In this document: piece by piece, positions 1-56,454 of the stretch
Position numbering within the stretch: the first letter of the stretch is position 1
Layout: every line of letters begins with the position of its first letter
Sequence record: OM362897.1
Length of the DNA stretch: 64,000 nucleotides
Source of the DNA: Escherichia phage SKA64
Reading direction: 5' to 3' (one strand)
Program-made: the position numbers and the translations under genes
Notes under the pieces: model-generated
What the model was told of the DNA's origin: nothing
Databases searched by the model: none
The model's input: the letters and a program-made list of their open reading frames with translations, nothing else

Positions 1-95
1 ACAAGGAGATCGCCACCTGGTTGATCTATAAGCTCAACATGCAAGCCGGATGATTCGGCGGTTTTAACGGCGGTTAATACTGTTGCAATACTCAT
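1..95 (-). CDS. hypothetical protein (N-terminal part; continues past window start)
   Basis: ATG at 93-95 (minus) preceded by AGGAAGGG RBS; frame open to window edge. Confidence 0.35.
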   Translation of the reverse strand, partial: MSIATVLTAVKTAESSGLHVELIDQPGGDLL

Positions 96-116
96 AATCT
101 TTTCCCTTCCTGATGT

Positions 117-132
117 GGGGCGTTGCCGCCCC
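117..132 (-). promoter_or_regulatory. PeSL-like 5' leader stem-loop
   Basis: GGGGCG-TTGC-CGCCCC hairpin between promoter-like hexamers and RBS of minus-strand gene; no U-tract. Confidence 0.5.
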
Positions 133-140
133 TTTGTTGA

Positions 141-440
141 TTAGATCGCTGTTTCCAGTAGTTCGGCTAACGTCTTACCGCCTGATAGTTGGTCTAACGT
201 TTGCTCTTCTGGCAAGAAATTAGCGGATATTAAACCGACCTGGTTCCCTTTGTGCCAGTTAGCCTGACGGGTGATTCCATCCTTCAAGGATTTTACCGCC
301 ATTGTGCAACCATCGCCAAATGATTCATTTTTATGGTCCATCACTTCATAAGCGCCCAGCTTGCTGCTGTTAGGCACCATTAACGCAAATACATCACCAA
401 CAACCAGTTTTTCTACGGTAACAATAGCGATAGTTTCCAT
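141..440 (-). CDS. hypothetical protein (99 aa)
   Basis: ORF track; GAGGAAA RBS before ATG; own promoter and leader hairpin upstream. Confidence 0.6.
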   Translation of the reverse strand: METIAIVTVEKLVVGDVFALMVPNSSKLGAYEVMDHKNESFGDGCTMAVKSLKDGITRQANWHKGNQVGLISANFLPEEQTLDQLSGGKTLAELLETAI

Positions 441-458
441 TTTGTTTTCCTCATTATC

Positions 459-476
459 GGCGGCACCATTGCCGCC
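459..476 (-). promoter_or_regulatory. PeSL-like 5' leader stem-loop
   Basis: GGCGGC-ACCATT-GCCGCC hairpin 20 nt upstream of ATG at 440. Confidence 0.55.
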
Positions 477-487
477 CTACGCATTAA

Positions 488-516
488 ATATAAATTATCT
501 AAGAGATTAGATCAAG
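488..516 (-). promoter_or_regulatory. sigma70-like promoter (minus strand)
   Basis: minus-strand TTGATC-N17-TATATT directly upstream of leader hairpin. Confidence 0.5.
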
Positions 517-518
517 GA

Positions 519-710
519 TTATTTTGTAAAGATTACAGCTTCATCAAAATTTTCAACATAGTAAGCAAGTTTTTCATTTGCTGCAACCAGTTGTAAAAGT
601 TGGTCGTAAGATAATCCATTGATCCCCTCTTCGTTGTTTAAAGCCTCGATGATTTCATCAACGGGCGCAAAAAACATGTTATTCGATTCCAGGTAGGTGA
701 TAGTTTTCAT
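519..710 (-). CDS. hypothetical protein (63 aa)
   Basis: ORF track; AAAGG RBS; own promoter-hairpin cassette. Confidence 0.55.
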   Translation of the reverse strand: MKTITYLESNNMFFAPVDEIIEALNNEEGINGLSYDQLLQLVAANEKLAYYVENFDEAVIFTK

Positions 711-732
711 AATGTTTTACCTTTTTCGGGGA

Positions 733-748
733 GCGGCACCATTGCCGC
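733..748 (-). promoter_or_regulatory. PeSL-like 5' leader stem-loop
   Basis: GCGGC-ACCATT-GCCGC hairpin upstream of ATG at 710. Confidence 0.55.
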
Positions 749-760
749 CCTACGTGGTAA

Positions 761-788
761 ATATTAGCACACTGGCGATCTGTGTCAA
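761..788 (-). promoter_or_regulatory. sigma70-like promoter (minus strand)
   Basis: minus-strand TTGACA-N16-TAATAT. Confidence 0.55.
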
Positions 789-794
789 TACTTT

Positions 795-1181
795 TTATTC
801 AATATAAATCAAATTATCTTCACCAATGTAAGCCGACACGTTCGGCATAAACTTAGCTGCATTGGTTAGGCGGTTCGCCGTGTTAGTGGTGTATATTTCA
901 GGGCGATCCCAAAAGCCTACGCCGTGACCGTTACGGGTAAAATGTAAATCATTCCCGATCTGGTTGGCTGTTGCGCCGTCGCTCATTGCCTCAGAGATAG
1001 CGGCAAGATTAGCATTAATAAAGGCTGTTACATCCTGGGCGATCCGTTCGTCCGCGCTAGGAGAAAAATCATAATCGTCTAAGTTATCAATAAAATTACC
1101 TTCATGATCCCTTGCTGATTCAGCAAAAATAAAGGCTTCTTTATAGCCGTTGATGATTTCAATAATGATTTCTGTTTTCAT
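795..1181 (-). CDS. hypothetical protein (128 aa)
   Basis: ORF track; AAAGAGAGA RBS-like sequence before ATG. Confidence 0.6.
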   Translation of the reverse strand: MKTEIIIEIINGYKEAFIFAESARDHEGNFIDNLDDYDFSPSADERIAQDVTAFINANLAAISEAMSDGATANQIGNDLHFTRNGHGVGFWDRPEIYTTNTANRLTNAAKFMPNVSAYIGEDNLIYIE

Positions 1182-1195
1182 GTTGTGTCTCTCTT

Positions 1196-1300
1196 TTAGC
1201 CGATACCGTGGGAAGATAGGATCATGTTAGCCATAGTTGCAACCACTCCAACCGATAACGCCAGGCCCACTACTACGACCGTGAAAATTTTCTCTAACAT
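1196..1300 (-). CDS. small hydrophobic peptide (34 aa, MLEKIFTVVVVGLALSVGVV...)
   Basis: hand-translated; GAGGG RBS 8 nt before ATG; below ORF-track size cutoff. Confidence 0.35.
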   Translation of the reverse strand: MLEKIFTVVVVGLALSVGVVATMANMILSSHGIG

Positions 1301-1318
1301 GATTCTACCCTCATTAAT

Positions 1319-1342
1319 GGGCGTTGCCTTATTGCCCCGCCC
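1319..1342 (-). promoter_or_regulatory. PeSL-like 5' leader stem-loop (variant)
   Basis: GGGCG...CGCCC inverted repeat preceded on minus strand by TTGACA-N16-TAGAAT. Confidence 0.4.
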
Positions 1343-1381
1343 TACGAAATACATTCTACCCGATTTATAATTGTTGTCAAA

Positions 1382-1651
1382 TTATTTTTTCAAGCTTGAC
1401 CACTCAAAACACGGGGCGATCTCGTTAAAACTTGTGCCCTGTAAAGCACATAATTTTTTAGCAATAGCCGCCGTGACCTGGCGCTGTACGCGCGGATCTG
1501 CTACTGATTGGAGAAAGTAGGCGGCTTTATATGTGATCATGCTTTCACCTGTTTCCTTGTTAACATGATGCACTATTTTAGCCTTATCATCTTTTACCAG
1601 GATGTAACCGGATTCGATGGCCTTGATTGCAACGTCTAATGATATTTTCAT
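1382..1651 (-). CDS. hypothetical protein (89 aa)
   Basis: ORF track; AAGAGG RBS. Confidence 0.6.
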   Translation of the reverse strand: MKISLDVAIKAIESGYILVKDDKAKIVHHVNKETGESMITYKAAYFLQSVADPRVQRQVTAAIAKKLCALQGTSFNEIAPCFEWSSLKK

Positions 1652-1670
1652 GATTTACCTCTTTATTGAC

Positions 1671-1691
1671 GGCGGGGAATACTCCCCCGCC
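1671..1691 (-). promoter_or_regulatory. PeSL-like 5' leader stem-loop
   Basis: GGCGGGG-AATACT-CCCCGCC hairpin upstream of ATG at 1651. Confidence 0.5.
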
Positions 1692-1698
1692 TCATTAA

Positions 1699-1869
1699 TT
1701 ATTCTTCATCGTCGCCGTTATAGTATTCAATGCCATTTTCATCGGTTACGGTGATGTTAACGCCACCGATAGCAACACGATCACGGGCAAACGTCATAGC
1801 TTCATTTAAATCTTCAGACCAAAAAATATTGTGACCTTTGCGCGATACATAAAACATAGTCGGGATCAT
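1699..1869 (-). CDS. hypothetical protein (56 aa)
   Basis: track ORF 1699..1953 trimmed to internal ATG (1867-1869) because the 5' extension translates the leader hairpin; AGAAGAGAAA RBS-like. Confidence 0.5.
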   Translation of the reverse strand: MIPTMFYVSRKGHNIFWSEDLNEAMTFARDRVAIGGVNITVTDENGIEYYNGDDEE

Positions 1870-1890
1870 GATTTGTTTCTCTTCTGTTGT

Positions 1891-1914
1891 GAGCGGTGGA
1901 CCATTCCGCCGCTC
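1891..1914 (-). promoter_or_regulatory. PeSL-like 5' leader stem-loop
   Basis: GAGCGGTGG-ACCATT-CCGCCGCTC hairpin. Confidence 0.5.
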
Positions 1915-1954
1915 TATGTAATAAACTTTACTACGTTGTTTGCCTACTGTCAAA

Positions 1955-2239
1955 TTATTTTTTAATGTTTTGCCCTACAAAATTGATCACTTCCTTAAGC
2001 TGTCTCTCTGTCATGATCGTACCTGGTAACTCTTCTTTAATTTCTTCTGGTAAATAGATATTACCGCGCCAGGTTAACAAACAACCGTTTTGATCTTCGC
2101 AGATAGAATAAGAAAACATCCACTCGCAATCATTCTCAAGCTCCCAAAAACACAAAAAGTCTTCTTTCCCTAAGTTTTCAACGGTTAAGCATAATCCGCG
2201 ACGTGCTGCATAATTAGTTAGGCTTTTTGTAATTTTCAT
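1955..2239 (-). CDS. hypothetical protein (94 aa)
   Basis: track ORF trimmed to ATG at 2237-2239 (upstream extension translates hairpin). Confidence 0.5.
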   Translation of the reverse strand: MKITKSLTNYAARRGLCLTVENLGKEDFLCFWELENDCEWMFSYSICEDQNGCLLTWRGNIYLPEEIKEELPGTIMTERQLKEVINFVGQNIKK

Positions 2240-2260
2240 GATTTTTCTCTCTTCTTGTGA

Positions 2261-2276
2261 GCGGCACCATTGCCGC
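2261..2276 (-). promoter_or_regulatory. PeSL-like 5' leader stem-loop
   Basis: GCGGC-ACCATT-GCCGC hairpin. Confidence 0.55.
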
Positions 2277-2288
2277 CCTACAAGATAC

Positions 2289-2316
2289 ATATTATCAGAC
2301 TACGCGGACTTGTCAA
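2289..2316 (-). promoter_or_regulatory. sigma70-like promoter (minus strand)
   Basis: minus-strand TTGACA-N16-TAATAT. Confidence 0.55.
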
Positions 2317-2317
2317 A

Positions 2318-2428
2318 CTATTTTTTCTTTTTCTTTGCTTCCAACCGTCTAAGGTTACGGCTTGACTTATTGCGCAAGGCGCTTAGATCGTCGTACCCTT
2401 TCCATGCTTGCATATCTTTCGGATTCAT
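2318..2428 (-). CDS. small lysine-rich basic peptide (36 aa, ends KKKKK)
   Basis: AAGGGGG RBS 5 nt before ATG; C-terminal part of track ORF 2318..2590. Confidence 0.35.
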   Translation of the reverse strand: MNPKDMQAWKGYDDLSALRNKSSRNLRRLEAKKKKK

Positions 2429-2438
2429 GTTATCCCCC

Positions 2439-2717
2439 TTAACGATTATAAACATTATGGATGGCTTCAAAGGCAAGATGACCATAAGCCGCCAAATCGG
2501 GATTGATCCAAGCGTTATCCAACATCGTTTCAAGGACTGTGGAATCATCGTATAAAGCATCATAGAAATCTGCACGGATGATCGTTTCAATGTCGTCCGG
2601 TGTTAGTTTGTCGTTCAACTTGCACACTGTTTCAACGTCAACACCAATTTTCCAATTTTGTAAATTAGTGGTTAACATTGTTTTCATTTCTTCGGTTGTT
2701 AATTTAACGATGGTCAT
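2439..2717 (-). CDS. hypothetical protein (92 aa)
   Basis: ORF track; AAGAGAGAAA RBS-like; own promoter-hairpin cassette. Confidence 0.6.
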   Translation of the reverse strand: MTIVKLTTEEMKTMLTTNLQNWKIGVDVETVCKLNDKLTPDDIETIIRADFYDALYDDSTVLETMLDNAWINPDLAAYGHLAFEAIHNVYNR

Positions 2718-2738
2718 GATTTTTTCTCTCTTCTGTTA

Positions 2739-2760
2739 GGCGGGGCGCTTGTCGCCCCTA
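2739..2760 (-). promoter_or_regulatory. PeSL-like 5' leader stem-loop
   Basis: GGGGCG-CTTGT-CGCCCC hairpin. Confidence 0.55.
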
Positions 2761-2768
2761 TGTGATAC

Positions 2769-2796
2769 ATCTTATCAGGTTGATTCAGCTTGTCAA
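2769..2796 (-). promoter_or_regulatory. sigma70-like promoter (minus strand)
   Basis: minus-strand TTGACA-N16-TAAGAT. Confidence 0.55.
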
Positions 2797-2797
2797 A

Positions 2798-2959
2798 CTA
2801 TTTGTTAGCCGGATTATATGCCAGGACCGCGCCGCTTGCTTTCACACTTTCCGCTTCATAGTTGCGCAGATCGTTTTCTGTAAGATTGAGCGCGATCACT
2901 TCCTCGACTTCAACGCCAGCGACAAGGGCGATCTCTTTGATAATGTCTGTTATTTTCAT
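2798..2959 (-). CDS. hypothetical protein (53 aa)
   Basis: track ORF trimmed to ATG at 2957-2959 with AAGGTG RBS. Confidence 0.5.
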   Translation of the reverse strand: MKITDIIKEIALVAGVEVEEVIALNLTENDLRNYEAESVKASGAVLAYNPANK

Positions 2960-2969
2960 GGTGTGCACC

Positions 2970-3089
2970 TTATAAGATGATTGATAAGATAGTGACAACG
3001 AAAGCGATTATACTGATGGCAAATGTCATCTTTTTACCTTCGGATACTGCCGGATTCTCTACCGTGTATTCTACTGTGTACTTGCTCAT
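2970..3089 (-). CDS. small membrane peptide (39 aa, ...FAISIIAFVVTILSIIL)
   Basis: hand-translated; GAGAGGA RBS; stop overlaps RBS of next gene; paralogous to 7448..7552. Confidence 0.45.
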   Translation of the reverse strand: MSKYTVEYTVENPAVSEGKKMTFAISIIAFVVTILSIIL

Positions 3090-3112
3090 CGTGTAATCCT
3101 CTCGTTTGCTTT

Positions 3113-3125
3113 GGGAACTATTCCC
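3113..3125 (-). promoter_or_regulatory. PeSL-like 5' leader stem-loop
   Basis: GGGAA-CTA-TTCCC hairpin; minus-strand TTGCAA-N16-TATATT upstream. Confidence 0.45.
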
Positions 3126-3186
3126 GCCGCCCTATGAATTAAATATACACTATCTCAAAATGATTGCAAGCCTTTTTCTAAATTAT

Positions 3187-3471
3187 TTATGCAGTAAACA
3201 AACCATCATTTACAACGGCGGCGATGATCTCCCGTGCCATTGATTCAGGGAAAGGGGCGCTATAGTCCTGGCTTGTCTCATCGGTATCAGTGATCCAATG
3301 ATAAGCTAACGAGTAAAAGCCTTTACTAACTGTTTTCAGTGAGATGATGATCACTCGGTCAAGCTTATTGGTGAATGTTGCCGTTAATGTGTTACCATCC
3401 TGCGTCATGTTGGACAAGTAAGCGGGATCATTAATCAGGGAAAACATTAGCACGGTGTTAGCTTTACTCAT
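3187..3471 (-). CDS. hypothetical protein (94 aa)
   Basis: track ORF 3187..3501 trimmed to ATG at 3469-3471 (GAGGA RBS); extension overlaps hairpin. Confidence 0.5.
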   Translation of the reverse strand: MSKANTVLMFSLINDPAYLSNMTQDGNTLTATFTNKLDRVIIISLKTVSKGFYSLAYHWITDTDETSQDYSAPFPESMAREIIAAVVNDGLFTA

Positions 3472-3490
3472 GATTGCATCCTCAAAGGGG

Positions 3491-3508
3491 CGCGGCACCA
3501 TTGCCGCC
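3491..3508 (-). promoter_or_regulatory. PeSL-like 5' leader stem-loop
   Basis: GCGGC-ACCATT-GCCGC hairpin. Confidence 0.55.
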
Positions 3509-3518
3509 CTACACGATA

Positions 3519-3546
3519 ACTATAACACAATATAAAACAGGATCAA
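3519..3546 (-). promoter_or_regulatory. sigma70-like promoter (minus strand)
   Basis: minus-strand TTGATC-N16-TATAGT. Confidence 0.5.
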
Positions 3547-3749
3547 CCTTTATTTTTCCACGGTGTCAGCTTGTTAATCATTGGTGATAAATAGCGTTTA
3601 CCAACGTAAAACAGCACGCCAACTGATGCAACGGCGGCGATCTCATGCATAGCCGACGGGAAACGGGTATCATAATAAGATCCAATAATAGCAATAGCGG
3701 CAACGGCTGCAACGTCGATAATGATTTTTTCTTGTTTTGCGGTGATCAT
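3543..3749 (-). CDS. small membrane protein (68 aa)
   Basis: track ORF trimmed to ATG at 3747-3749; hydrophobic stretches AAVAAIAIIG and AAVASVGVLFYVG. Confidence 0.5.
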   Translation of the reverse strand: MITAKQEKIIIDVAAVAAIAIIGSYYDTRFPSAMHEIAAVASVGVLFYVGKRYLSPMINKLTPWKNKG

Positions 3750-3771
3750 AATATTTACCTTTTTGTATGGT

Positions 3772-3788
3772 GGGGGAACTATTCCCCG
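3772..3788 (-). promoter_or_regulatory. PeSL-like 5' leader stem-loop
   Basis: GGGGAA-CTA-TTCCCC hairpin. Confidence 0.5.
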
Positions 3789-3835
3789 CCTGATGTAATA
3801 CAGTTTAACAGGTCCGGTTATGGTGTCAACCACTT

Positions 3836-4021
3836 TTAAAGATATTTTATACTGATAACGTTTTCCGGTTTAACCTTGTTGTGATGTGCATCAACATAGA
3901 TCAAACCATCGTCAGAAAAGCCCAGGATCACGCCCTGCGCGATAAAACCGTATTCGTCACGGTAACGCACGGCTATTTTTAATGTTGCGTTGTAGGCTGT
4001 TTTAAGCTCGTTTAAAGTCAT
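3836..4021 (-). CDS. hypothetical protein (61 aa)
   Basis: ORF track; GAGGA RBS. Confidence 0.55.
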   Translation of the reverse strand: MTLNELKTAYNATLKIAVRYRDEYGFIAQGVILGFSDDGLIYVDAHHNKVKPENVISIKYL

Positions 4022-4040
4022 TTTTGTTTATCCTCTACAT

Positions 4041-4069
4041 GTAAAAAGAAAGGGCGCTTGGTGCGCCCT
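4041..4069 (-). terminator. rho-independent terminator candidate (minus strand)
   Basis: AGGGCGC-TTGGT-GCGCCCT hairpin followed on minus strand by TTCTTTTTAC. Confidence 0.45.
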
Positions 4070-4076
4070 TGTTATG

Positions 4077-4223
4077 TTAATTCTCTAAATCCATCCAATT
4101 ATATTTGTCACTCTTCCCGCGCTTTGTTTTATTGCGCTTGTCGCCTTTGCGGATCACTTCCTCATTCCAGGCCTTGCGGATCTTGGAAGATTGAATTTTT
4201 TCTGCACGATTAGATGTATTCAT
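4077..4223 (-). CDS. small basic protein (48 aa, Lys/Arg-rich)
   Basis: hand-translated; AAAGAGGAAA RBS; followed by terminator-like hairpin. Confidence 0.4.
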   Translation of the reverse strand: MNTSNRAEKIQSSKIRKAWNEEVIRKGDKRNKTKRGKSDKYNWMDLEN

Positions 4224-4242
4224 TTTGTTTCCTCTTTATATG

Positions 4243-4260
4243 AGCGGCACCATTGCCGCT
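4243..4260 (-). promoter_or_regulatory. PeSL-like 5' leader stem-loop
   Basis: AGCGGC-ACCATT-GCCGCT hairpin; minus-strand TTGACA upstream at 4291-4296. Confidence 0.5.
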
Positions 4261-4302
4261 ATATTATTAATTTAAACTGTTTTGTAAAATTGTCAAGGTT
4301 TA

Positions 4303-4656
4303 TCATTCATAAGAGCAAGCAAGGATCACGCCTGCAATATAAAGCCAATAATTTTCCCTTTCTCGTTGGATTTTATCATCGCTGCTATTCTCTTTAATGT
4401 ATCCCCAGGATGTTAACAAGCGATCAATTTCCCAATATTCGAAAGCGATATTAATATCTGATGGCAAACCTTGTAACCATGATGCTATTGCTCTGATAAT
4501 GTTATGATCGTAACGTTTTTGGTTATCGGTATACCAATACTCGGATTTAAAACAGCGCATCAATTCCGCGATCTTCTCTTTATCTTCTGTGATGCCATAC
4601 TTGCTATAATCAATTGAGGCCAGAATATAAAGTTTAATTGCATTTTGTGCTTTCAT
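4303..4656 (-). CDS. hypothetical protein (117 aa)
   Basis: ORF track; AGAAGAGAGA RBS-like. Confidence 0.6.
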   Translation of the reverse strand: MKAQNAIKLYILASIDYSKYGITEDKEKIAELMRCFKSEYWYTDNQKRYDHNIIRAIASWLQGLPSDINIAFEYWEIDRLLTSWGYIKENSSDDKIQRERENYWLYIAGVILACSYE

Positions 4657-4677
4657 GGTGTCTCTCTTCTGTTGTTG

Positions 4678-4694
4678 GCGGCACCATTGCCGCC
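4678..4694 (-). promoter_or_regulatory. PeSL-like 5' leader stem-loop
   Basis: GGCGGC-ACCATT-GCCGCC hairpin. Confidence 0.55.
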
Positions 4695-4733
4695 CTACTT
4701 GTTACATCTTACTGGATTTTTAAAACTTGTCAA

Positions 4734-4955
4734 TCATTTTTCTACTATCATTTGATACCCTGTTTCAACGTTAGAAAACACTGTTATCCCGTCCTGGCGT
4801 TCACTCATTAACATACAAGGCGCTAACATCCTTTCTACTGCCTTGCACTCGTTGTAAACGGCGGTTATATCTCCTGCTGCCTTGTCTTCTGTAGTAAATG
4901 TCTCATTTACGTAAACTTGACCAGCGACAACGGCGACAATAGCGAAAGTGATCAT
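4734..4955 (-). CDS. hypothetical protein (73 aa, N-terminus MITFA)
   Basis: ORF track; AAGGAAA RBS; first 18 nt identical to start of 5029..5196. Confidence 0.55.
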   Translation of the reverse strand: MITFAIVAVVAGQVYVNETFTTEDKAAGDITAVYNECKAVERMLAPCMLMSERQDGITVFSNVETGYQMIVEK

Positions 4956-4989
4956 GATGTTTCCTTGTTAGTAGTGGTTTCTCTTCTCT

Positions 4990-5012
4990 ATAGCGCCCAT
5001 TATAGGCGCTAT
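4990..5012 (-). promoter_or_regulatory. leader stem-loop (variant)
   Basis: AGCGCC-CATTAT-AGGCGCT hairpin upstream of 4955. Confidence 0.4.
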
Positions 5013-5028
5013 AACGAAAAGTCAACTA

Positions 5029-5196
5029 TTATTTTTTAAGGCTTAAAGTGCCTAGCTTATCAGCGTGACGCAGACCAGGGAAGATCCATTTTCCTGATTC
5101 ATCTTTCACCGGGGCTTTAAAAGTAGCGCCCAGGTTGGCGGCGTTAACTTTACGTGCAACGTTGCGAGCGGCTTCACGGGTAGCGAAAGTGATCAT
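5029..5196 (-). CDS. hypothetical protein (55 aa, N-terminus MITFATREAA)
   Basis: hand-translated; GAGGAAAA RBS; below ORF-track cutoff. Confidence 0.45.
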   Translation of the reverse strand: MITFATREAARNVARKVNAANLGATFKAPVKDESGKWIFPGLRHADKLGTLSLKK

Positions 5197-5220
5197 GATA
5201 TTTTCCTCTTCTCTTTGTTA

Positions 5221-5242
5221 GGCGGTGGACCATTCCGCCGCC
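5221..5242 (-). promoter_or_regulatory. PeSL-like 5' leader stem-loop
   Basis: GGCGGTGG-ACCATT-CCGCCGCC hairpin. Confidence 0.5.
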
Positions 5243-5288
5243 TTGATGTAATACAGTTTACTTTATTTTTGCAGTATTGCAAGCGGTT

Positions 5289-5504
5289 TTATGAAATAAA
5301 TGTCAAAGTAAAATCATAATCTTTTGACAGTTTATATTGCACCTTGTTACCGTATATGTCACCTTTACGTAAAGATCCACGGATACCGATAACATCCTTC
5401 ACGTCTTTTAAATTTTTCACGCCTGTAATGTCTTTGTTGAAATACTCGTCATCTGAAAATAAAACTTGCTTTGCATTTTTTAACAAGGTGCGGATATTAG
5501 CCAT
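5289..5504 (-). CDS. hypothetical protein (71 aa)
   Basis: track ORF trimmed to ATG at 5502-5504. Confidence 0.5.
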   Translation of the reverse strand: MANIRTLLKNAKQVLFSDDEYFNKDITGVKNLKDVKDVIGIRGSLRKGDIYGNKVQYKLSKDYDFTLTFIS

Positions 5505-5525
5505 TTTGATAATCTCTCTTACTAG

Positions 5526-5545
5526 GGGCGGCAATAGTGCCGCCC
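5526..5545 (-). promoter_or_regulatory. PeSL-like 5' leader stem-loop
   Basis: GGGCGGC-AATAGT-GCCGCCC hairpin. Confidence 0.5.
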
Positions 5546-5591
5546 TATGAATTACATTTTACTAATTTTAGTTGTCTTGTCAATATTATTT

Positions 5592-5819
5592 TTAGTTTAA
5601 TTGATCCAGGCATAACAGACGATCAACGTTGAGATCGGTCAGGCTAATCGTTGGCACCTGGTAGGATTCGATGTACTCAACGCTCGACCATTGCCCAAAG
5701 TTAGCGACCGCCCAGCTATTCAATGAGGAGTGAAGATCATCCCCTTTCTTCTCGGTGATAACTGCTACTACCTGGGAGATTCCAACCGTGCCGGATACGC
5801 GAACAATAACGATAGCCAT
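5592..5819 (-). CDS. hypothetical protein (75 aa)
   Basis: ORF track; AAAGG RBS. Confidence 0.55.
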   Translation of the reverse strand: MAIVIVRVSGTVGISQVVAVITEKKGDDLHSSLNSWAVANFGQWSSVEYIESYQVPTISLTDLNVDRLLCLDQLN

Positions 5820-5841
5820 AATGATAACCTTTCTTTGATTT

Positions 5842-5862
5842 GGCGGGAAACCATTTCCCGCC
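5842..5862 (-). promoter_or_regulatory. PeSL-like 5' leader stem-loop
   Basis: GGCGGGAAA-CCA-TTTCCCGCC hairpin. Confidence 0.5.
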
Positions 5863-5910
5863 CTATGCGATAAACTACACCAGATTAAAAAACGTTGTCA
5901 ACTGCTTTTA

Positions 5911-6150
5911 TTACATTCCTACCATAGCGGCACGGATTGCAGTTTTACTATACTTGAAACCATCAGGTGTATGAGTGATTCCATCCTGTTTTAATCTGTA
6001 GCACATCAGATCCGCCGCTTTATCTTTATTGCCGCACTCATTTATTAAACCTACAGCGTATAAGTATAACGATTCATCATTATTAATCCAAAGGCTTACA
6101 TTCCAATGAGTTTTATTTTTGTGACCGTTGTACATTTTAGATTTAGCCAT
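5911..6150 (-). CDS. hypothetical protein (79 aa)
   Basis: ORF track. Confidence 0.55.
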   Translation of the reverse strand: MAKSKMYNGHKNKTHWNVSLWINNDESLYLYAVGLINECGNKDKAADLMCYRLKQDGITHTPDGFKYSKTAIRAAMVGM

Positions 6151-6171
6151 GATGTTAATCTCTTTTTCAGT

Positions 6172-6193
6172 GAGGCGGGAACTATTCCCGCTC
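6172..6193 (-). promoter_or_regulatory. PeSL-like 5' leader stem-loop
   Basis: GCGGGAA-CTA-TTCCCGC hairpin. Confidence 0.5.
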
Positions 6194-6238
6194 TCGATAT
6201 AAGTATTATATGCTTTTTATTCGTGCTGTCAATGCTTT

Positions 6239-6604
6239 TTATAAATCTTTTTTACGTTTTACATCGCTTGCATGACTGTATACAGCGATCCCATTATCAC
6301 GGCAAAAGCGGGAAAGGTAGGCATAATTTGAAAACTCTTTACCTTCCAGGTTGATAACCTTGCTAAACTCTTCTAGGGCGACGGTATCAAAATGATCACC
6401 ATAGCCATATTGAAACGGAACGTTAACCACCTCGATCAGTTTACCGCCGATCTCAACGTCAACCATTAAAGAAAAATATGTATTACCGTAGGACCGTTGA
6501 AACCAGCGACGGGCGCTAATATGCACCGCCTCAATGCTGGATAATTCAATTTTAGCCGTGTTAGCCAGGGTAGCATAAGCGGAAACATTAATATTAATAG
6601 CCAT
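6239..6604 (-). CDS. hypothetical protein (121 aa)
   Basis: track ORF; start moved to ATG at 6602-6604 which has AAAGG RBS. Confidence 0.5.
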   Translation of the reverse strand: MAININVSAYATLANTAKIELSSIEAVHISARRWFQRSYGNTYFSLMVDVEIGGKLIEVVNVPFQYGYGDHFDTVALEEFSKVINLEGKEFSNYAYLSRFCRDNGIAVYSHASDVKRKKDL

Positions 6605-6626
6605 GATGATAACCTTTTTCATTGTT

Positions 6627-6647
6627 GGCGGGAAACCACTTCCCGCC
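6627..6647 (-). promoter_or_regulatory. PeSL-like 5' leader stem-loop
   Basis: GGCGGGAA-ACCAC-TTCCCGCC hairpin. Confidence 0.5.
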
Positions 6648-6692
6648 CTATGTGGTAAACTATACTAGAATTTTAAACAATGTCAACCGTTT

Positions 6693-7055
6693 TTATTCGT
6701 AAATTTTACCGCTTTCAGCCCATACCATAACGCGGCGCATACTATCCCAAGTGTTTTGATCCAGGTTTAAGCCGTGCAACTCTTCGGTACTTTCCAGACC
6801 AGGTACCGCCTTGTTGTAAGTCGCATATAAGCGCCCTTGATACTCATACGCCAGAGTAAGATCCGTTTGAATCATCTTTTTAAGCATAGCATTAAGCATC
6901 ATATTAGCGGCATGTTGATCACGTTTTAGCGGTAACATATCAATAAAGGCGCGATAAGCTGAAACATGAATATCAACCGTTTCACGTGGTAAATTTTTCA
7001 TGTCATCGCGGAAAGATACCAGATTAAACATGATAGTATTGATTTGCTTGCTCAT
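6693..7055 (-). CDS. hypothetical protein (120 aa)
   Basis: track ORF trimmed to ATG at 7053-7055 with AAAGGG RBS. Confidence 0.5.
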   Translation of the reverse strand: MSKQINTIMFNLVSFRDDMKNLPRETVDIHVSAYRAFIDMLPLKRDQHAANMMLNAMLKKMIQTDLTLAYEYQGRLYATYNKAVPGLESTEELHGLNLDQNTWDSMRRVMVWAESGKIYE

Positions 7056-7076
7056 TGTGTTACCCTTTTTTGTTTT

Positions 7077-7098
7077 GGCGGGGAAGTATTCCACCGCC
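7077..7098 (-). promoter_or_regulatory. PeSL-like 5' leader stem-loop
   Basis: GGCGGGGAA-GTA-TTCCACCGCC hairpin. Confidence 0.5.
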
Positions 7099-7155
7099 CT
7101 ATGTGTTACATCTTATCAGATTAAAAAACGTTGTCAAGAATATTTTTAGATAATT

Positions 7156-7437
7156 TTAACTGTATGATCCACATCGTTCGCAGTAGTGATCATCGTCGTC
7201 ATCAGCTACCTGGCTGATAAAGTGATCTACTTTTGCTTTTAGGTTATTATAATTATTTTCTACTTCCTTTAATCGCTCCTGATAGTATCCCAGGGCTTCA
7301 ATATACGCCGCCTCTTCTGTTTTTTCACGCATGGCTAAATTCATGCCGCGCGTATCATCATACAGCCAAAAACCATCGGTGCACTCACTCATTGAAAGGG
7401 TAGGGCTTAACTCTTTATGATTAATTACCTTGCTCAT
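7156..7437 (-). CDS. hypothetical protein (93 aa, C-terminal CERCGSYS)
   Basis: track ORF trimmed to ATG at 7435-7437 with AAGG RBS. Confidence 0.5.
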   Translation of the reverse strand: MSKVINHKELSPTLSMSECTDGFWLYDDTRGMNLAMREKTEEAAYIEALGYYQERLKEVENNYNNLKAKVDHFISQVADDDDDHYCERCGSYS

Positions 7438-7447
7438 AGTGTGCGCC

Positions 7448-7552
7448 TTATAGAATGATTGAAACAACAATTGCTACAGTGATCCACACTGGAACGGCTA
7501 ACAAAATAGCGTTAATCGTTCCAACCGTCAAACTATTTTCTTTATTAATCAT
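7448..7552 (-). CDS. small membrane peptide (34 aa, ...VWITVAIVVSIIL)
   Basis: hand-translated; AGAGG RBS; paralog of 2970..3089 with the same downstream junction. Confidence 0.45.
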   Translation of the reverse strand: MINKENSLTVGTINAILLAVPVWITVAIVVSIIL

Positions 7553-7579
7553 TGTAAGCCTCTTGCATAATTTCACTAT

Positions 7580-7599
7580 GAGCGGCACCATTGCCGCCC
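7580..7599 (-). promoter_or_regulatory. PeSL-like 5' leader stem-loop
   Basis: GCGGC-ACCATT-GCCGC hairpin. Confidence 0.55.
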
Positions 7600-7634
7600 T
7601 ACGTGGTAAATATTATGCCAGTGGCGGCGATATG

Positions 7635-8192
7635 TCAAAGACTATTTTCAAAGTTTTCTAGTGCGATCCTTTTTTCTTCCTCTGTTGGCTGATAATCAGG
7701 AAAAGCATCAACACACAACAACGGCGGGATCTCTTCGTACTCTTCCTCTTCCGTTGTCTCCTCGTCTTCCTCCTGGGCTATGGCTGCAATTTTGGCTAAT
7801 TTTCTTTCAGCTTGAATCAATTTACCATCAAGTACGTTTTTTGCCATATTGTAAGCGGTCCAGGTTATGCGCTTACTTTCTAATGCTTCCTCAAGCGCCG
7901 CTATCTTGCTGGGGTATTCATCCAGGACACGAAAAGCCGGATCAACTTTGTACAAAGGATTATCTTTCGCGCCGTCGCTCGCATCTTCCGCACTGGATAA
8001 ATCAGCGTTACCATTTGCCAGCCAGCCAGGGCGCACATAACGCGCTTTTACGTTGCCGTTACTACGTGCTAATCTGTTACCTATTTGCTCACCGCTATAT
8101 CCCGTGGATTCATCGATAAGATGATCGGTAATGATGCGCGGATCATCTGCTTCATGTTTTACCCAAGACTGGATCACATATTCGCGGCCCAT
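7635..8192 (-). CDS. hypothetical acidic protein (185 aa)
   Basis: ORF track; start set to ATG at 8190-8192 (AAGGTGG RBS 5 nt upstream); Glu/Asp-rich C-terminal region. Confidence 0.55.
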   Translation of the reverse strand: MGREYVIQSWVKHEADDPRIITDHLIDESTGYSGEQIGNRLARSNGNVKARYVRPGWLANGNADLSSAEDASDGAKDNPLYKVDPAFRVLDEYPSKIAALEEALESKRITWTAYNMAKNVLDGKLIQAERKLAKIAAIAQEEDEETTEEEEYEEIPPLLCVDAFPDYQPTEEEKRIALENFENSL

Positions 8193-8193
8193 A

Positions 8194-8451
8194 TTAACCA
8201 CCTTTTTTCAACAATTGGCATACTTTAAAAAGACTTGCTGAATCCTTGCAAGGGTAGAAAGATGTACGATAGTCACGTACGCCAACCTTGCGGATCTCGA
8301 TGTTCTCGCATGTTGTTTGATCAAAGATATTTATTTCATCATGCCCCCTTATATAAACATAGTGGGGATGTATTAACGCATATTTTGCTAATCTGTAAAA
8401 AGCGTTATCTTTGAACGCGATCACGTGACCTTTTAATTTGATGTAAAACAT
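8194..8451 (-). CDS. hypothetical protein (85 aa)
   Basis: ORF track; AAGGTGG RBS. Confidence 0.6.
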   Translation of the reverse strand: MFYIKLKGHVIAFKDNAFYRLAKYALIHPHYVYIRGHDEINIFDQTTCENIEIRKVGVRDYRTSFYPCKDSASLFKVCQLLKKGG

Positions 8452-8468
8452 TCTACCACCTTACAAAT

Positions 8469-8487
8469 AGCGGGAACTATTCCCGCT
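8469..8487 (-). promoter_or_regulatory. PeSL-like 5' leader stem-loop
   Basis: AGCGGGAA-CTA-TTCCCGCT hairpin. Confidence 0.5.
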
Positions 8488-8527
8488 TTATGTAACATAT
8501 TAACAAATTATTCGTTAATGTCAAGCC

Positions 8528-8800
8528 TTAAAGCAAAAACGCTACATCTTGCGCTTTTAGTGTAGTATCAACCATTTTCGGGCTTTTATAATCAACAAAG
8601 CGCGCGGTTTTTTCAATAGCGAAACCGAGATAATCTTGTTTATTGAATTTACATTCTTTCTTAAATGTTTCCCGCGCCACGGTGATCGCTGCGTCCAGGG
8701 ATAAACGCCCGTCAATGTTGATATTTGCGAAAGATCCGCCACCGCTCATAGGTTTACCAGTGGTGCCAGTTACGATCATTGTTGCGCTATATGATGCCAT
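8528..8800 (-). CDS. hypothetical protein (90 aa)
   Basis: ORF track; AAGAGAGAAA RBS-like. Confidence 0.55.
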   Translation of the reverse strand: MASYSATMIVTGTTGKPMSGGGSFANINIDGRLSLDAAITVARETFKKECKFNKQDYLGFAIEKTARFVDYKSPKMVDTTLKAQDVAFLL

Positions 8801-8821
8801 GATGATTTCTCTCTTCTGTTA

Positions 8822-8842
8822 GGCGGGGCGCTTGTCGCCCCT
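8822..8842 (-). promoter_or_regulatory. PeSL-like 5' leader stem-loop
   Basis: GGGGCG-CTTGT-CGCCCC hairpin, near-identical to copy at 2739-2760. Confidence 0.55.
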
Positions 8843-8884
8843 ATGTGATACATCTTATCAGGTTGTGGCTTGTTGTCAAGACTT

Positions 8885-9082
8885 TTATTCTATTCCTGCA
8901 ATCTGCTTAACGCGCTTGCATTTTGCAGTATGCTGATCTTCTGTAATTACTCCCATTTCTAACAGTGAATCAATGAAAGATAAAACCGTTTCATGATCAT
9001 CTTGGGGATGACTGAACTCAGTAAAACCGTTTACTATTACGTTGATTTGTCCAGCTTTCGCCACAATGTGCAATGTTGCCAT
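8885..9082 (-). CDS. hypothetical protein (65 aa)
   Basis: track ORF trimmed to ATG at 9080-9082 with GGAG RBS. Confidence 0.5.
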   Translation of the reverse strand: MATLHIVAKAGQINVIVNGFTEFSHPQDDHETVLSFIDSLLEMGVITEDQHTAKCKRVKQIAGIE

Positions 9083-9101
9083 GATCTTAACTCCAAATAG
9101 T

Positions 9102-9121
9102 GAGCGGCACCATTGCCGCCC
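9102..9121 (-). promoter_or_regulatory. PeSL-like 5' leader stem-loop
   Basis: GCGGC-ACCATT-GCCGC hairpin; minus-strand TTGACG-N17-TAATAT upstream. Confidence 0.55.
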
Positions 9122-9268
9122 TACGTGGTAAATATTATGCCGCCACCTGGCGAACGTCAACCACTTTTTCAATCTTTTTATTTTCTTTTTGCTTGCTATA
9201 TATAAAGGAAAGGGCTATCATCTTTCTACCGCGCCAACCAGGGCGCACAACAAAGAAAGGGCGACACC

Positions 9269-9537: not shown

Positions 9538-9566
9538 TTGACAAGCCCAGGGATCGGGCTTATACT
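9538..9566 (+). promoter_or_regulatory. consensus sigma70 promoter
   Basis: TTGACA-N17-TATACT; spacer is a GATC-centred palindrome AGCCCAGGGATCGGGCT. Confidence 0.65.
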
Positions 9567-9573
9567 GTTTTAC

Positions 9574-9790
9574 ATACAGAAGAGGAAGCGCCACCCCACG
9601 GCGTAAAGGCGGGGCTAACATACCAGGGGCACTGGTTGGAAGGTTGATCGCCGGTAGGCTGGGCGCTATATATTTGTAAAGAAATGTAAAGATAAAATAA
9701 TCGCTTGCTTTCCTGGGTGGATCTGTTATTCTTATTACATGGCGAGGGGACACGGGAGCGCGAGACAAACACCGCCCCTGCGCGTCATTC
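9574..9790 (+). ncRNA. candidate structured non-coding transcript (GC-rich leader)
   Basis: starts at consensus promoter; GC-rich islands with local hairpins (ACCAG-GGGCA-CTGGT at 9621-9635) in an AT-rich genome; no RBS-led ORF. Confidence 0.3.
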
Positions 9791-9797
9791 TCTAAAT

Positions 9798-9816
9798 GAG
9801 AATGATTATCATTTAC
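9798..9816. promoter_or_regulatory. Fur-box-like palindrome
   Basis: GAGAATGATTATCATTTAC matches 15 of 19 positions of GATAATGATAATCATTATC. Confidence 0.35.
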
Positions 9817-9855
9817 CTTATCAAATAAGAATCAATCTCATTTATAAACCTAAAT

Positions 9856-9874
9856 GCGAATCATTATCATTTGC
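9856..9874. promoter_or_regulatory. Fur-box-like palindrome (second copy)
   Basis: GCGAATCATTATCATTTGC; AAATGC...GCATTT inverted repeat. Confidence 0.3.
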
Positions 9875-9919
9875 ATTTCCATATGAGAACTCTTCTCATT
9901 CCCATCTGCATAAATTTTT

Positions 9920-9980
9920 GTAAACTTTAAATTTTGCTTTTGTACTTTCATTTTTGTAAAAGCAAAAAAACTTTAAATAC
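9920..9980. repeat. AT-rich direct repeat, copy 1
   Basis: about 58 bp, roughly 80% identical to 10058-10118. Confidence 0.55.
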
Positions 9981-10012
9981 TGTGGGCGCGCAAAATTTTT
10001 AAAATTTTCCTT

Positions 10013-10160
10013 GATTTTTGAGTTTTGTTTTGTATCTGACATTTTAAGATAATTTTCCTAAACTTTAAATTTTGGTTTTCAACTTTCACTTTTGTAAATT
10101 CTTAAAAAGTTTAAATAATTTGAGGGATTTTTGAGATAATAGGTAATGGGAATTTGAGAT
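10013..10160. repeat. iteron-like short repeats (GATTTTTGAG x3)
   Basis: GATTTTTGAG at 10013-10022 and 10126-10135, ATTTGAGAT at 10152-10160. Confidence 0.4.
10058..10118. repeat. AT-rich direct repeat, copy 2
   Basis: second copy of AAACTTTAAATTTTG...TTTTGTAAA...TTTAAATA block. Confidence 0.55.
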
Positions 10161-10246
10161 AACCTTTAATCTTATTGGCAGACCTTCAGGAACCCACTCA
10201 GATCGAATCCTAGTGATGCAAACTGAAAAAGACAAGGGTTTGTATA

Positions 10247-10296
10247 GGACAAAATAATAGGCTCTCTACGGTGCTGTAGGAGCCTTATTTCTGTGC
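10247..10296. terminator. bidirectional rho-independent terminator candidate
   Basis: AGGCTCTCTAC...GTAGGAGCCT hairpin (10259-10285) flanked by A-tract and T-tract; sits after minus-strand gene ending at 10341. Confidence 0.5.
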
Positions 10297-10340
10297 TACA
10301 AAGTGACGCCTTTGTTCTAAAAATGAAAAAAGTTAAAATA

Positions 10341-56321: not shown

Positions 56322-56454
56322 TGTGCTTCTGTTCCAACAAAACCATTATCAAGTGCGATCTGATAAGCCGATTTACCCCTTTCAAAGAGGCAAGCCATTG
56401 TGCTTCTGTTCCAACAAAACCATTATCAAGTGCGATCTGATAAGCCGATTTACC
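56301..56454. repeat. perfect 77-bp tandem duplication (2 copies)
   Basis: 56301-56377 identical to 56378-56454; 77 is not a multiple of 3. Confidence 0.9.

Follow-up and report, generated by a model that had tools for sequence, protein, structure and literature searches.

Shared translational linkers and promoter/hairpin cassettes in the early-gene region of Escherichia phage SKA64

In bacterial and phage operons, a classical form of translational coupling between neighbouring genes relies on a stop codon overlapping or adjoining the ribosome-binding site (RBS) of the next gene. A described system for the exchange of small phage genes is that of the PeSL (promoter-early stem-loop) cassettes of the T4-type phages RB49/phi1, PST and nt-1 (Arbiol et al., 2010, PMC2839356; Comeau et al., 2014, PMC4122927), in which a strong sigma-70-like promoter, a stable stem-loop and a Shine-Dalgarno sequence precede small ORFans in many copies within a hyperplastic region. 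Here, the early genes in a stretch of 64,000 nucleotides (nt) from Escherichia phage SKA64 (sequence record OM362897.1), referred to as the window, are compared with these systems, with emphasis on two bicistrons, P1-D1 and P2-D2, in each of which the gene for a predicted membrane micro-protein precedes a gene without a promoter of its own (Table 1). The repeats in this region are probably short shared connectors and recombination scars, not duplicated gene modules.

In a megablast search with bases 2700-7700, 206 phage records were matched, the best being those of Phapecoctavirus (ECO340P2, ukendt, ESCO37 and others) with 91-93% identity. Because of this identity, the source is placed as a phAPEC8-like Phapecoctavirus myovirus of ~150 kilobases (kb), belonging to Stephanstirmvirinae. 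Twenty-nine small genes lie head to tail within bases 1-9200, all on the minus strand, and this part of the window is likely to be the hyperplastic, fast-shuffling early-gene region of Phapecoctavirus. The region resembles the PeSL system in several features: a strong sigma-70-like promoter and an adjacent stem-loop stand with a Shine-Dalgarno sequence before small ORFans, the conserved cassette is present in many copies, and related genomes gain or lose whole ORFans by insertions and deletions (indels) whose crossovers lie inside the cassettes. It differs in that this phage is a member of Stephanstirmvirinae and is not T4-like; in that the hairpin usually follows the -10 box and occupies the 5′ end of the transcript, unlike the commonest phi1/RB49 layout; and in that stop-overlapping linkers are used as joints of a second type. 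The phAPEC8 GenBank record (JX561091) marks the same two elements as are found here, namely the hairpin, (A/G)TAGGGCGGCAATGGTGCCG, as 'putative promoter determined with PHIRE', and the upstream TTGACA..TAGAAT as a MEME host-dependent promoter; that record differs in taking the hairpin motif as a promoter and in leaving P2 and the linkers unannotated. The mechanism considered below is an extension of the PeSL-mediated shuffling of T4-like phages, and the current understanding stands.

Short repeats shared by otherwise unrelated genes

Both P1 and P2 end in SIIL and are connected to the following gene by TATAAGG(T/C)GCACAC(C/T)ATG, as had been noticed in an earlier, sequence-only reading of the window; both features are confirmed on the minus strand. 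In the best local alignment of the P1-D1 and P2-D2 modules, 25 of 29 nt are identical (TCAATCAT..ATGA), and these 29 nt consist of the last four codons of the peptide gene, TAA, GG(T/C)GCACAC(C/T), which includes the overlapping Shine-Dalgarno sequence and a CACAC spacer, the ATG of the follower and one further A. The TAA lies within the Shine-Dalgarno sequence (TAAGGTG or TAAGGCG) and precedes the ATG of the promoter-less gene by 10 nt, which is the arrangement expected for translational coupling. The pattern TAAGGNGNACACNATG has two exact matches in the 64 kb, compared with 0.08 expected, and the score of the linker alignment was reached by none of 2000 shuffles. When the P2 module was compared with other 170-nt segments of the minus strand, the next best score was 16, as against the observed 21. 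Among 406 pairs of hand-curated start regions, the starts of the genes following P1 and P2 rank second, surpassed only by a leader already known to be duplicated.

The sequence-only reading took these matches for duplicated modules, each composed of a small membrane peptide and a downstream gene, and this is not borne out, because the sharing is limited to the 29-nt linker. Comparison of P1 with P2 gave no alignment by BLASTP at E <= 100 and none by tblastn, and hhalign of the family alignments returned a probability of 4%; likewise, no BLASTP alignment of D1 with D2 was obtained at E <= 100, and the two are assigned to different PHROGs. The SIIL ending is not conserved within either peptide family and is located in the least conserved part of both. 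In the P1 family, the conserved part is N-terminal (MxKYTVEY..EN.AV.EG) and the tails are SIIL or AILL, and in the P2 family, the motifs KENSLTVGTIN and VP.W are conserved and the tail varies among relatives (SIIL, SILL, TIILK, TIIFK, IIF and VIF).

Genes A and B were reported in the same reading to share an identical 18-base-pair start. The identity is real, but counted from the ATG it covers 16 nt, or 19 nt when the 3 upstream nt are included. The 19-nt patch ATCATGATCACTTTCGCTA occurs exactly twice in the window, compared with 0.02 expected, and the identity widens to 26/30; the next most similar pair of starts matches at 15/19. Past residue 5, A and B are unrelated, since 930 of 1000 shuffles score equally well or better. 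In all close relatives examined, MITFA opens both genes, with occasional independent synonymous changes, except for a contig from IMG/VR in which B starts with MITFT. Distant homologues of A in Cronobacter phage CR9 (Vequintavirinae) and in Klebsiella phages 05F01 and KP13-26 start with M(I/V)TFAII, which suggests, as far as these homologues go, that the MITFA start is ancestral to the gene A family. The distant homologue of B in Klebsiella phage KP13-26, which is equal in length, starts with MIAMNTREAAR, and codons 3-5 of B differ from it at 8 of 9 bases with the flanks conserved. The shared start is thus most likely the result of a short-patch copy of 19-30 nt from A into its neighbour B, 241 nt away.

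A shorter element, ATGATCAC, which encodes Met-Ile-Thr and contains a GATC Dam site, opens four early genes, at 3543-3749, 4734-4955, 5029-5196 and, in a related locus (L001 1032-1247), gene Y.

Joints at which genes come and go

Searches of IMG/VR with a protein query returned one related contig, and searches with the linker pattern returned two stretches, one of them on the same contig. Because these matches are too few for a population analysis, GenBank phage records were used for comparison. The relatives differ from the window by indels of whole genes, the breakpoints of which lie in promoter/hairpin cassettes or in stop-overlapping linkers, and the cassette shuffling proposed from the sequence is therefore borne out.

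Breakpoints in linkers are best seen around P2. The form in which P2, the linker and D2 follow one another is found in the window, nepoznato, ECO340P2, phi92, PD114 and WPEC4; in phAPEC8 and phiWec190, a further gene, X (63 amino acids [aa]), is inserted between two linkers, giving P2-linker-X-linker-D2. Gene X also ends in ..VIL*, and in phiWec190 it is trailed by the sequence of linker 2. In one IMG/VR locus (L003), P2 and D2 are connected by a hybrid linker, the joint GTAAGGGGCACACT being composed of the left linker of phAPEC8 and the right linker. P2 stands alone in ukendt, ESCO13, most Phapecoctavirus genomes and several Justusliebigvirus genomes. When the P2 tails of WPEC4 and PD114 (..FWIVVSVIISIIL) are compared with the standalone tail of ukendt (..VIIF*), SIIL, the linker and D2 are seen to be removed at an ATTAT microhomology. 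Across the loci fetched, TAAGGNGNACACNATG is confined to the joints P1>D1, P2>D2, P2>X and X>D2. D2 itself is a mobile cassette, and jumbo Asteriusvirus phages such as 121Q carry it behind a promoter and hairpin of its own.

Similar joints are found elsewhere in the array. The linker TAAGGGG(G)ATAACATG connects the 36-aa gene to gene 2439..2717 in the window and to D1 in ukendt and ZCKP1. This difference corresponds to a 361-nt segment (2438-2798, one cassette and gene 2439..2717) that is present in the window and missing from ukendt, ECO340P2 and ZCKP1, in all of which the 36-aa gene is linked straight to D1 by the same linker. One of two leaders that are 90% identical across 82 nt (2715-2796 and 8798-8879, each with promoter, GGGGCGACAAGCGCCCC hairpin and RBS) heads this segment. 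Relatives carry TAAGGTGAAACAAATG and the 71-aa gene Y after P3; gene Y is missing from the window. A crossover inside a hairpin is evident at gene 519..710, which is flanked by two hairpin cassettes in the window and is replaced in ukendt by one chimeric cassette that joins the 710-leader promoter to the 440-leader RBS, with the crossover within GTAGGGCGGCAATGGTGCCGC; this pair fits the scheme shown in Figure 3 of the work on PeSLs. Finally, the leader of gene 5911..6150 (6151-6235), consisting of promoter and hairpin, matches the leader of the D2 homologue of 121Q (L006 1484-1575) at 44 of 46 columns in an alignment with two single-base gaps and one mismatch, so that regulatory cassettes seem to be common to unrelated coliphage groups.

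Decayed versions of the two modules were also observed. Klebsiella phage ZCKP1 (L017 2660-2730) retains D1 but has lost most of P1 together with its hairpin and -10 box. In phage AV123 (L026 780-900), the promoter and the start of P2 are deleted between two copies of TTGACG, one in the promoter and the other in the P2 codons for SLTV.

These comparisons can be accommodated in a single scheme. The host sigma-70 RNA polymerase would transcribe the cassettes early in infection, and the 5′ hairpin would stabilise or insulate each mRNA. A ribosome ending on the leader open reading frame (ORF) would re-initiate ~10 nt downstream on the follower, and the peptides would enter the inner membrane once released from the ribosome. 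The linker would move with the downstream cassette and rewrite the last codons of the upstream gene, and both peptides would end in SIIL for this reason. Exchange between linkers, or an adjacent deletion at a microhomology, would then yield P2 alone, P2-D2, P2-X-D2 and the hybrid joint. The newest element of this scheme is the translational linker serving as a recombination joint that rewrites the C-termini of upstream micro-proteins. A broader proposal, which is tentative and is put forward only as a possibility, is that stop-overlapping linkers together with the last two to four hydrophobic codons form a second class of portable joint beside the promoter/hairpin cassettes, by which promoter-less ORFan cassettes could be inserted downstream of other genes, with a preference for those for membrane micro-proteins, and would rewrite their C-termini; a two-component early effector might then be formed by a micro-protein together with its follower.

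The same architecture, consisting of a promoter, a hairpin, a 34-39-aa peptide with a C-terminal hydrophobic segment, a TAAGG linker and a small soluble protein, is present three times, and linkers identical at 25 of 29 positions could be what remains of an ancestral bicistron for a membrane peptide and its partner that was duplicated, the copies having diverged until only the doubly constrained tail and linker were recognisable. Peptides this short soon lose detectable homology. Such a duplication is nevertheless unlikely, because P1 and P2 give no alignment by BLASTP or tblastn and an hhalign probability of 4%, D1 and D2 do not align, the conserved parts of P1 and P2 are unrelated, the SIIL tail shows the lowest conservation in both families and varies according to the gene downstream, and in most genomes P2 occurs without D2 and D2 without P2. 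The resemblances might instead be convergent or due to chance, given that promoter-less genes need a stop, a Shine-Dalgarno sequence, an A/C-rich spacer and ATG, that hydrophobic tails use Ile and Leu codons, and that efficient starts favour ATGATCAC. TAAGG linkers do join unrelated genes (at 2428, at P3>Y in relatives and at the gene after B in KP13-26), ACAC is found upstream of 6 of 29 starts, and ATGATCAC opens four different genes, A, B, 3543..3749 and Y. This explanation is quite improbable, in view of the 25/29 identity, which is unmatched elsewhere in the 64 kb and by any of the 2000 shuffles, of the exact 19-nt patch, and of the hybrid linker of L003 and the chimeric cassette of ukendt, which are direct footprints of exchange; moreover, the replacement of codons 3-5 of B between conserved flanks is the mark of a patch and not of drift.

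It is also conceivable that the small hydrophobic ORFs serve as regulatory leaders, for which the act of translation matters and not the peptide. All three lie directly upstream of promoter-less genes with a stop overlapping the Shine-Dalgarno sequence, and in the fold of P2-D2, the linker CACAC is base-paired with a GUGUG within P2. The folds are no more stable than those of shuffled sequences (z -0.35 to +1.4), purifying selection acts on the amino acids (ratio of non-synonymous to synonymous change, pN/pS, 0.06-0.35), and P2 without a follower is intact in most Phapecoctavirus and Justusliebigvirus genomes and in Klebsiella phage 05F01 (39% identity), all of which make this explanation very hard to credit. 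The observations are real and non-random. What they show is the ordinary shuffling of modules within a hyperplastic early region; neither a duplication of modules nor undiscovered genes are involved.

Several points weigh against the interpretation of the repeats as connectors and scars left by exchange, or against parts of the scheme built on it. Part of the similarity of the linkers could reflect shared constraint and not shared descent, because the TAAGG linker design and the ACAC spacer are also found at unrelated starts; the 25/29 identity and the hybrid joints exceed such generic resemblance. The use of the promoters, the function of the hairpins, translational coupling and membrane insertion are all inferred from sequence features. 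RNA folding of the linkers revealed no significant structure that would occlude the RBS of the follower, and in this respect, as in the repetition of the linker and its action as a recombination joint, the arrangement differs from classical translational coupling. A promoter-like site inside P2 (7503-7531, TTGACG-17-TATTTT, 9/12 matches), which is weak and lies within the conserved codons for SLTVG, could express D2 without coupling to the translation of P2. The bicistron that starts with a peptide gene is not an obligate unit, because P2 stands alone in most relatives. Finally, the apparent direction of the MITFA copy depends on one distant homologue of B.

Exchange at cassettes and at short translational linkers provides a base-by-base view of how early ORFans are gained and lost in large coliphages used in therapy, and the same cassettes seem to circulate among unrelated phage groups, namely Phapecoctavirus, Justusliebigvirus and the jumbo Asteriusvirus phages.

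Micro-proteins and their followers

The small ORFs 1196..1300, 2318..2428 and 4077..4223, noticed in the sequence-only reading, exist and have an RBS of the GAGG or AAGG type 6-9 nt upstream; they are absent from the ORF track because they are shorter than its default threshold of 60 aa, and for no other reason. The further claim that these ORFs and the two peptides are unannotated or hidden does not hold, since four of the five match PHROG families and the fifth, P2, which has no match among the PHROG families, is annotated in several GenBank records (nepoznato, ukendt, JohannJBalmer, KMB37, WPEC4 and Klebsiella phage 05F01). In comparisons with 8-11 relatives each, all five keep their frame and nearly always their length, and synonymous change predominates (pN/pS 0-0.35). 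From this pattern of change, the micro-proteins are judged to be real genes under selection. A cut-off of 60 aa misses about a sixth of the genes of the region (5/29), which should serve as a warning for annotation.

Table 1. Positions and properties of the early-region features discussed in the text.
Feature	Coordinates	Strand	Description
Z	795..1181	-	128-aa acidic protein after P3; without own promoter
P3	1196..1300	-	34-aa membrane micro-protein (predicted); phrog_14631; Kyte-Doolittle maximum 2.46; pN/pS 0.06
36-aa basic micro-protein	2318..2428	-	phrog_31652; joined to upstream gene 2439..2717 by TAAGGGGGATAACATG
D1	2798..2959	-	53-aa acidic protein; phrog_35944; without own promoter
Linker 1	2956..2984	-	TCAATCATCTTA-TAA-GGTGCACACC-ATG-A; last 4 codons of P1, stop overlapping Shine-Dalgarno sequence, spacer, start of D1
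P1	2970..3089	-	39-aa single-pass membrane micro-protein (predicted); first cistron of bicistron; encodes MSKYTVEYTVENPAVSEGKKMTFAISIIAFVVTILSIIL
P1-D1 promoter and 5′ hairpin	3108..3169	-	TTGCAA-16-TATATT at 3142-3169; GGGAA..TTCCC core at 3113-3125
48-aa basic protein	4077..4223	-	T7 gene 1.1 homologue; phrog_2490; pN/pS 0.16
Gene A	4734..4955	-	73 aa; phrog_25390; starts MITFAIVAVVAG
Gene B	5029..5196	-	55 aa, basic; phrog_13689; starts MITFATREAAR
Exact 19-nt patch ATCATGATCACTTTCGCTA	4940..4958; 5181..5199	-	Start of gene A; start of gene B
D2	7156..7437	-	93-aa protein; phrog_19040; without own promoter here
Linker 2	7434..7462	-	TCAATCATTCTA-TAA-GGCGCACACT-ATG-A
P2	7448..7552	-	34-aa single-pass membrane micro-protein (predicted); encodes MINKENSLTVGTINAILLAVPVWITVAIVVSIIL
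P2-D2 promoter and 5′ hairpin	7580..7638	-	TTGACA-17-TAATAT at 7610-7638; hairpin at 7580-7599

P1 is composed of 20 polar N-terminal residues and 19 hydrophobic C-terminal residues (Kyte-Doolittle maximum over 19 residues, 2.69) and matches phrog_10979, 'membrane protein', over its whole length (E 5.9e-23; residues 1-39 on profile positions 1-39 of 39). Its length of 39 aa is retained in 8 relatives, and pN/pS is 0.35 between the window and nepoznato, in both of which it has 39 aa; the ukendt record annotates it as gp073. For P2, the Kyte-Doolittle maximum is 2.87 and pN/pS is 0.24, and tblastn finds exactly one copy of it per record in 113 phage records, the matches listed being Stephanstirmvirinae or close relatives. 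None of the three membrane peptides, P1, P2 and P3, matches Pfam at E <= 0.1.

P3 and Z form a third bicistron in which a membrane peptide comes first, which was overlooked in the sequence-only reading. A hydropathy scan found exactly three peptides shorter than 40 aa with a hydrophobic helix, namely P3, P1 and P2, and all three of these micro-proteins (34-39 aa) are among the 5 leaders of 24 first cistrons (hypergeometric P ~0.005).

A cellular counterpart of these peptides is YohP of E. coli, a single-pass membrane protein of 27 aa that is inserted post-translationally (PMC7549839). P1, P2 and P3, with 30-40 aa, resemble it in being small and in having one predicted hydrophobic helix, and they differ in being encoded by phage early genes and in having no sequence relationship to it. 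Because the helix of P1 and P2 extends to the C-terminus, insertion would have to follow release from the ribosome. The best guess is that the micro-proteins are post-translationally inserted inner-membrane effectors of early infection, and their function probably resides in the conserved polar segment, which is N-terminal or juxtamembrane, and not in the tail. A role in host takeover, which had been assumed for these genes, would be suggested solely by their sigma-70 early-type promoters. Searches of the literature yielded no study of these genes by transcriptomics, ribosome profiling or proteomics. The three conserved membrane micro-proteins are concrete targets for work on early infection.

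Among the two remaining small ORFs, 2318..2428 differs from its relatives by 8 synonymous and 0 non-synonymous changes (pN/pS 0.00). The other, 4077..4223, matches Pfam PF08200 (Phage_1_1) with 49.8 bits (cut-off 21, E 4.9e-13) and resembles the T7 gene 1.1 protein in being small, very basic and early, differing in that it belongs to another phage family. An early-gene family of podoviruses is thus represented in a large myovirus. Downstream of it at 4050-4070, on the minus strand, the sole classical intrinsic terminator of the array (AAGGGCGCACCAAGCGCCCTT followed by TCTTTTT) separates it from the promoter-less gene 3836..4021.

D1 co-occurs with P1 in 62 of 65 phage records and, as the linker between them would imply, may be translationally linked to it. 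Neither D1 nor D2 has sequence relatives among solved structures in the PDB. D2 marginally passes the threshold for Pfam PF06279, DUF1033 (26.5 bits, cut-off 25), and its 184 homologues, on contigs of ~150 kb and ~350 kb, bear a precomputed DUF1033 domain and the NCBI name 'DUF1033 family protein'. An AlphaFold2 model of D2 consists of a four-stranded beta-meander and one long helix (mean predicted local distance difference test score 87) and, when searched by Foldseek, has no match in the PDB at E <= 0.001. A zinc site in D2 was considered and dropped, because the C-terminal CxxC is missing in distant homologues.

The cassette array and adjoining sequences

Nearly all genes of the array are laid out alike: the stop of the previous gene is followed by TTGACA, 16-17 nt, TAnnnT, ~9 nt, the hairpin, the RBS and ATG. 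The hairpin of the leader is GC-rich (GGGCGGCAATGGTGCCGC and variants) and the RBS is purine-rich. In a promoter scan of the minus strand, at least 17 sites with an exact TTGACA box were found, with 10-12 of 12 consensus matches. GC-rich stem-loops of 6-9 base pairs are present in nearly every leader, mostly downstream of the -10 box, and the gene A cassette alone has its hairpin over the -10 box. Because no T-run follows these hairpins, a role as terminators is doubtful. The leaders include two repeat families, one of 61 nt with 9 copies and one of 55 nt with 10 copies. Rfam and ARAGORN searches of the window gave no matches.

Five promoter-less genes start at 1181, 2428, 2959, 7437 and 8192, each no more than ~15 nt from the previous stop. 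Four of them are joined by a short linker, in three cases with the TAA overlapping the Shine-Dalgarno sequence (TAAGGNG-N6-ATG), and in the remaining gene, 7635..8192, the previous stop directly abuts the ATG.

The sequence adjoining the early array (9540-10340) is AT-rich and has no convincing ORF. Within it, at 9792-9900, AAATGAGAATnATTATCATTT is repeated four times at a spacing of 29 nt, and these copies include the best match in the window to the E. coli Fur-box consensus (16/19 at 9798; 14/19 at 9856); single matches this good are frequent in shuffled sequences, so that the clustering alone is noteworthy. The same AT-rich stretch contains a direct repeat of 72 nt (9913-9984 and 10051-10122, 82% identical). 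Far from the early array, at 56300-56454, a 77-nt unit is present in perfect tandem, with 2.0 copies and a 100% match.

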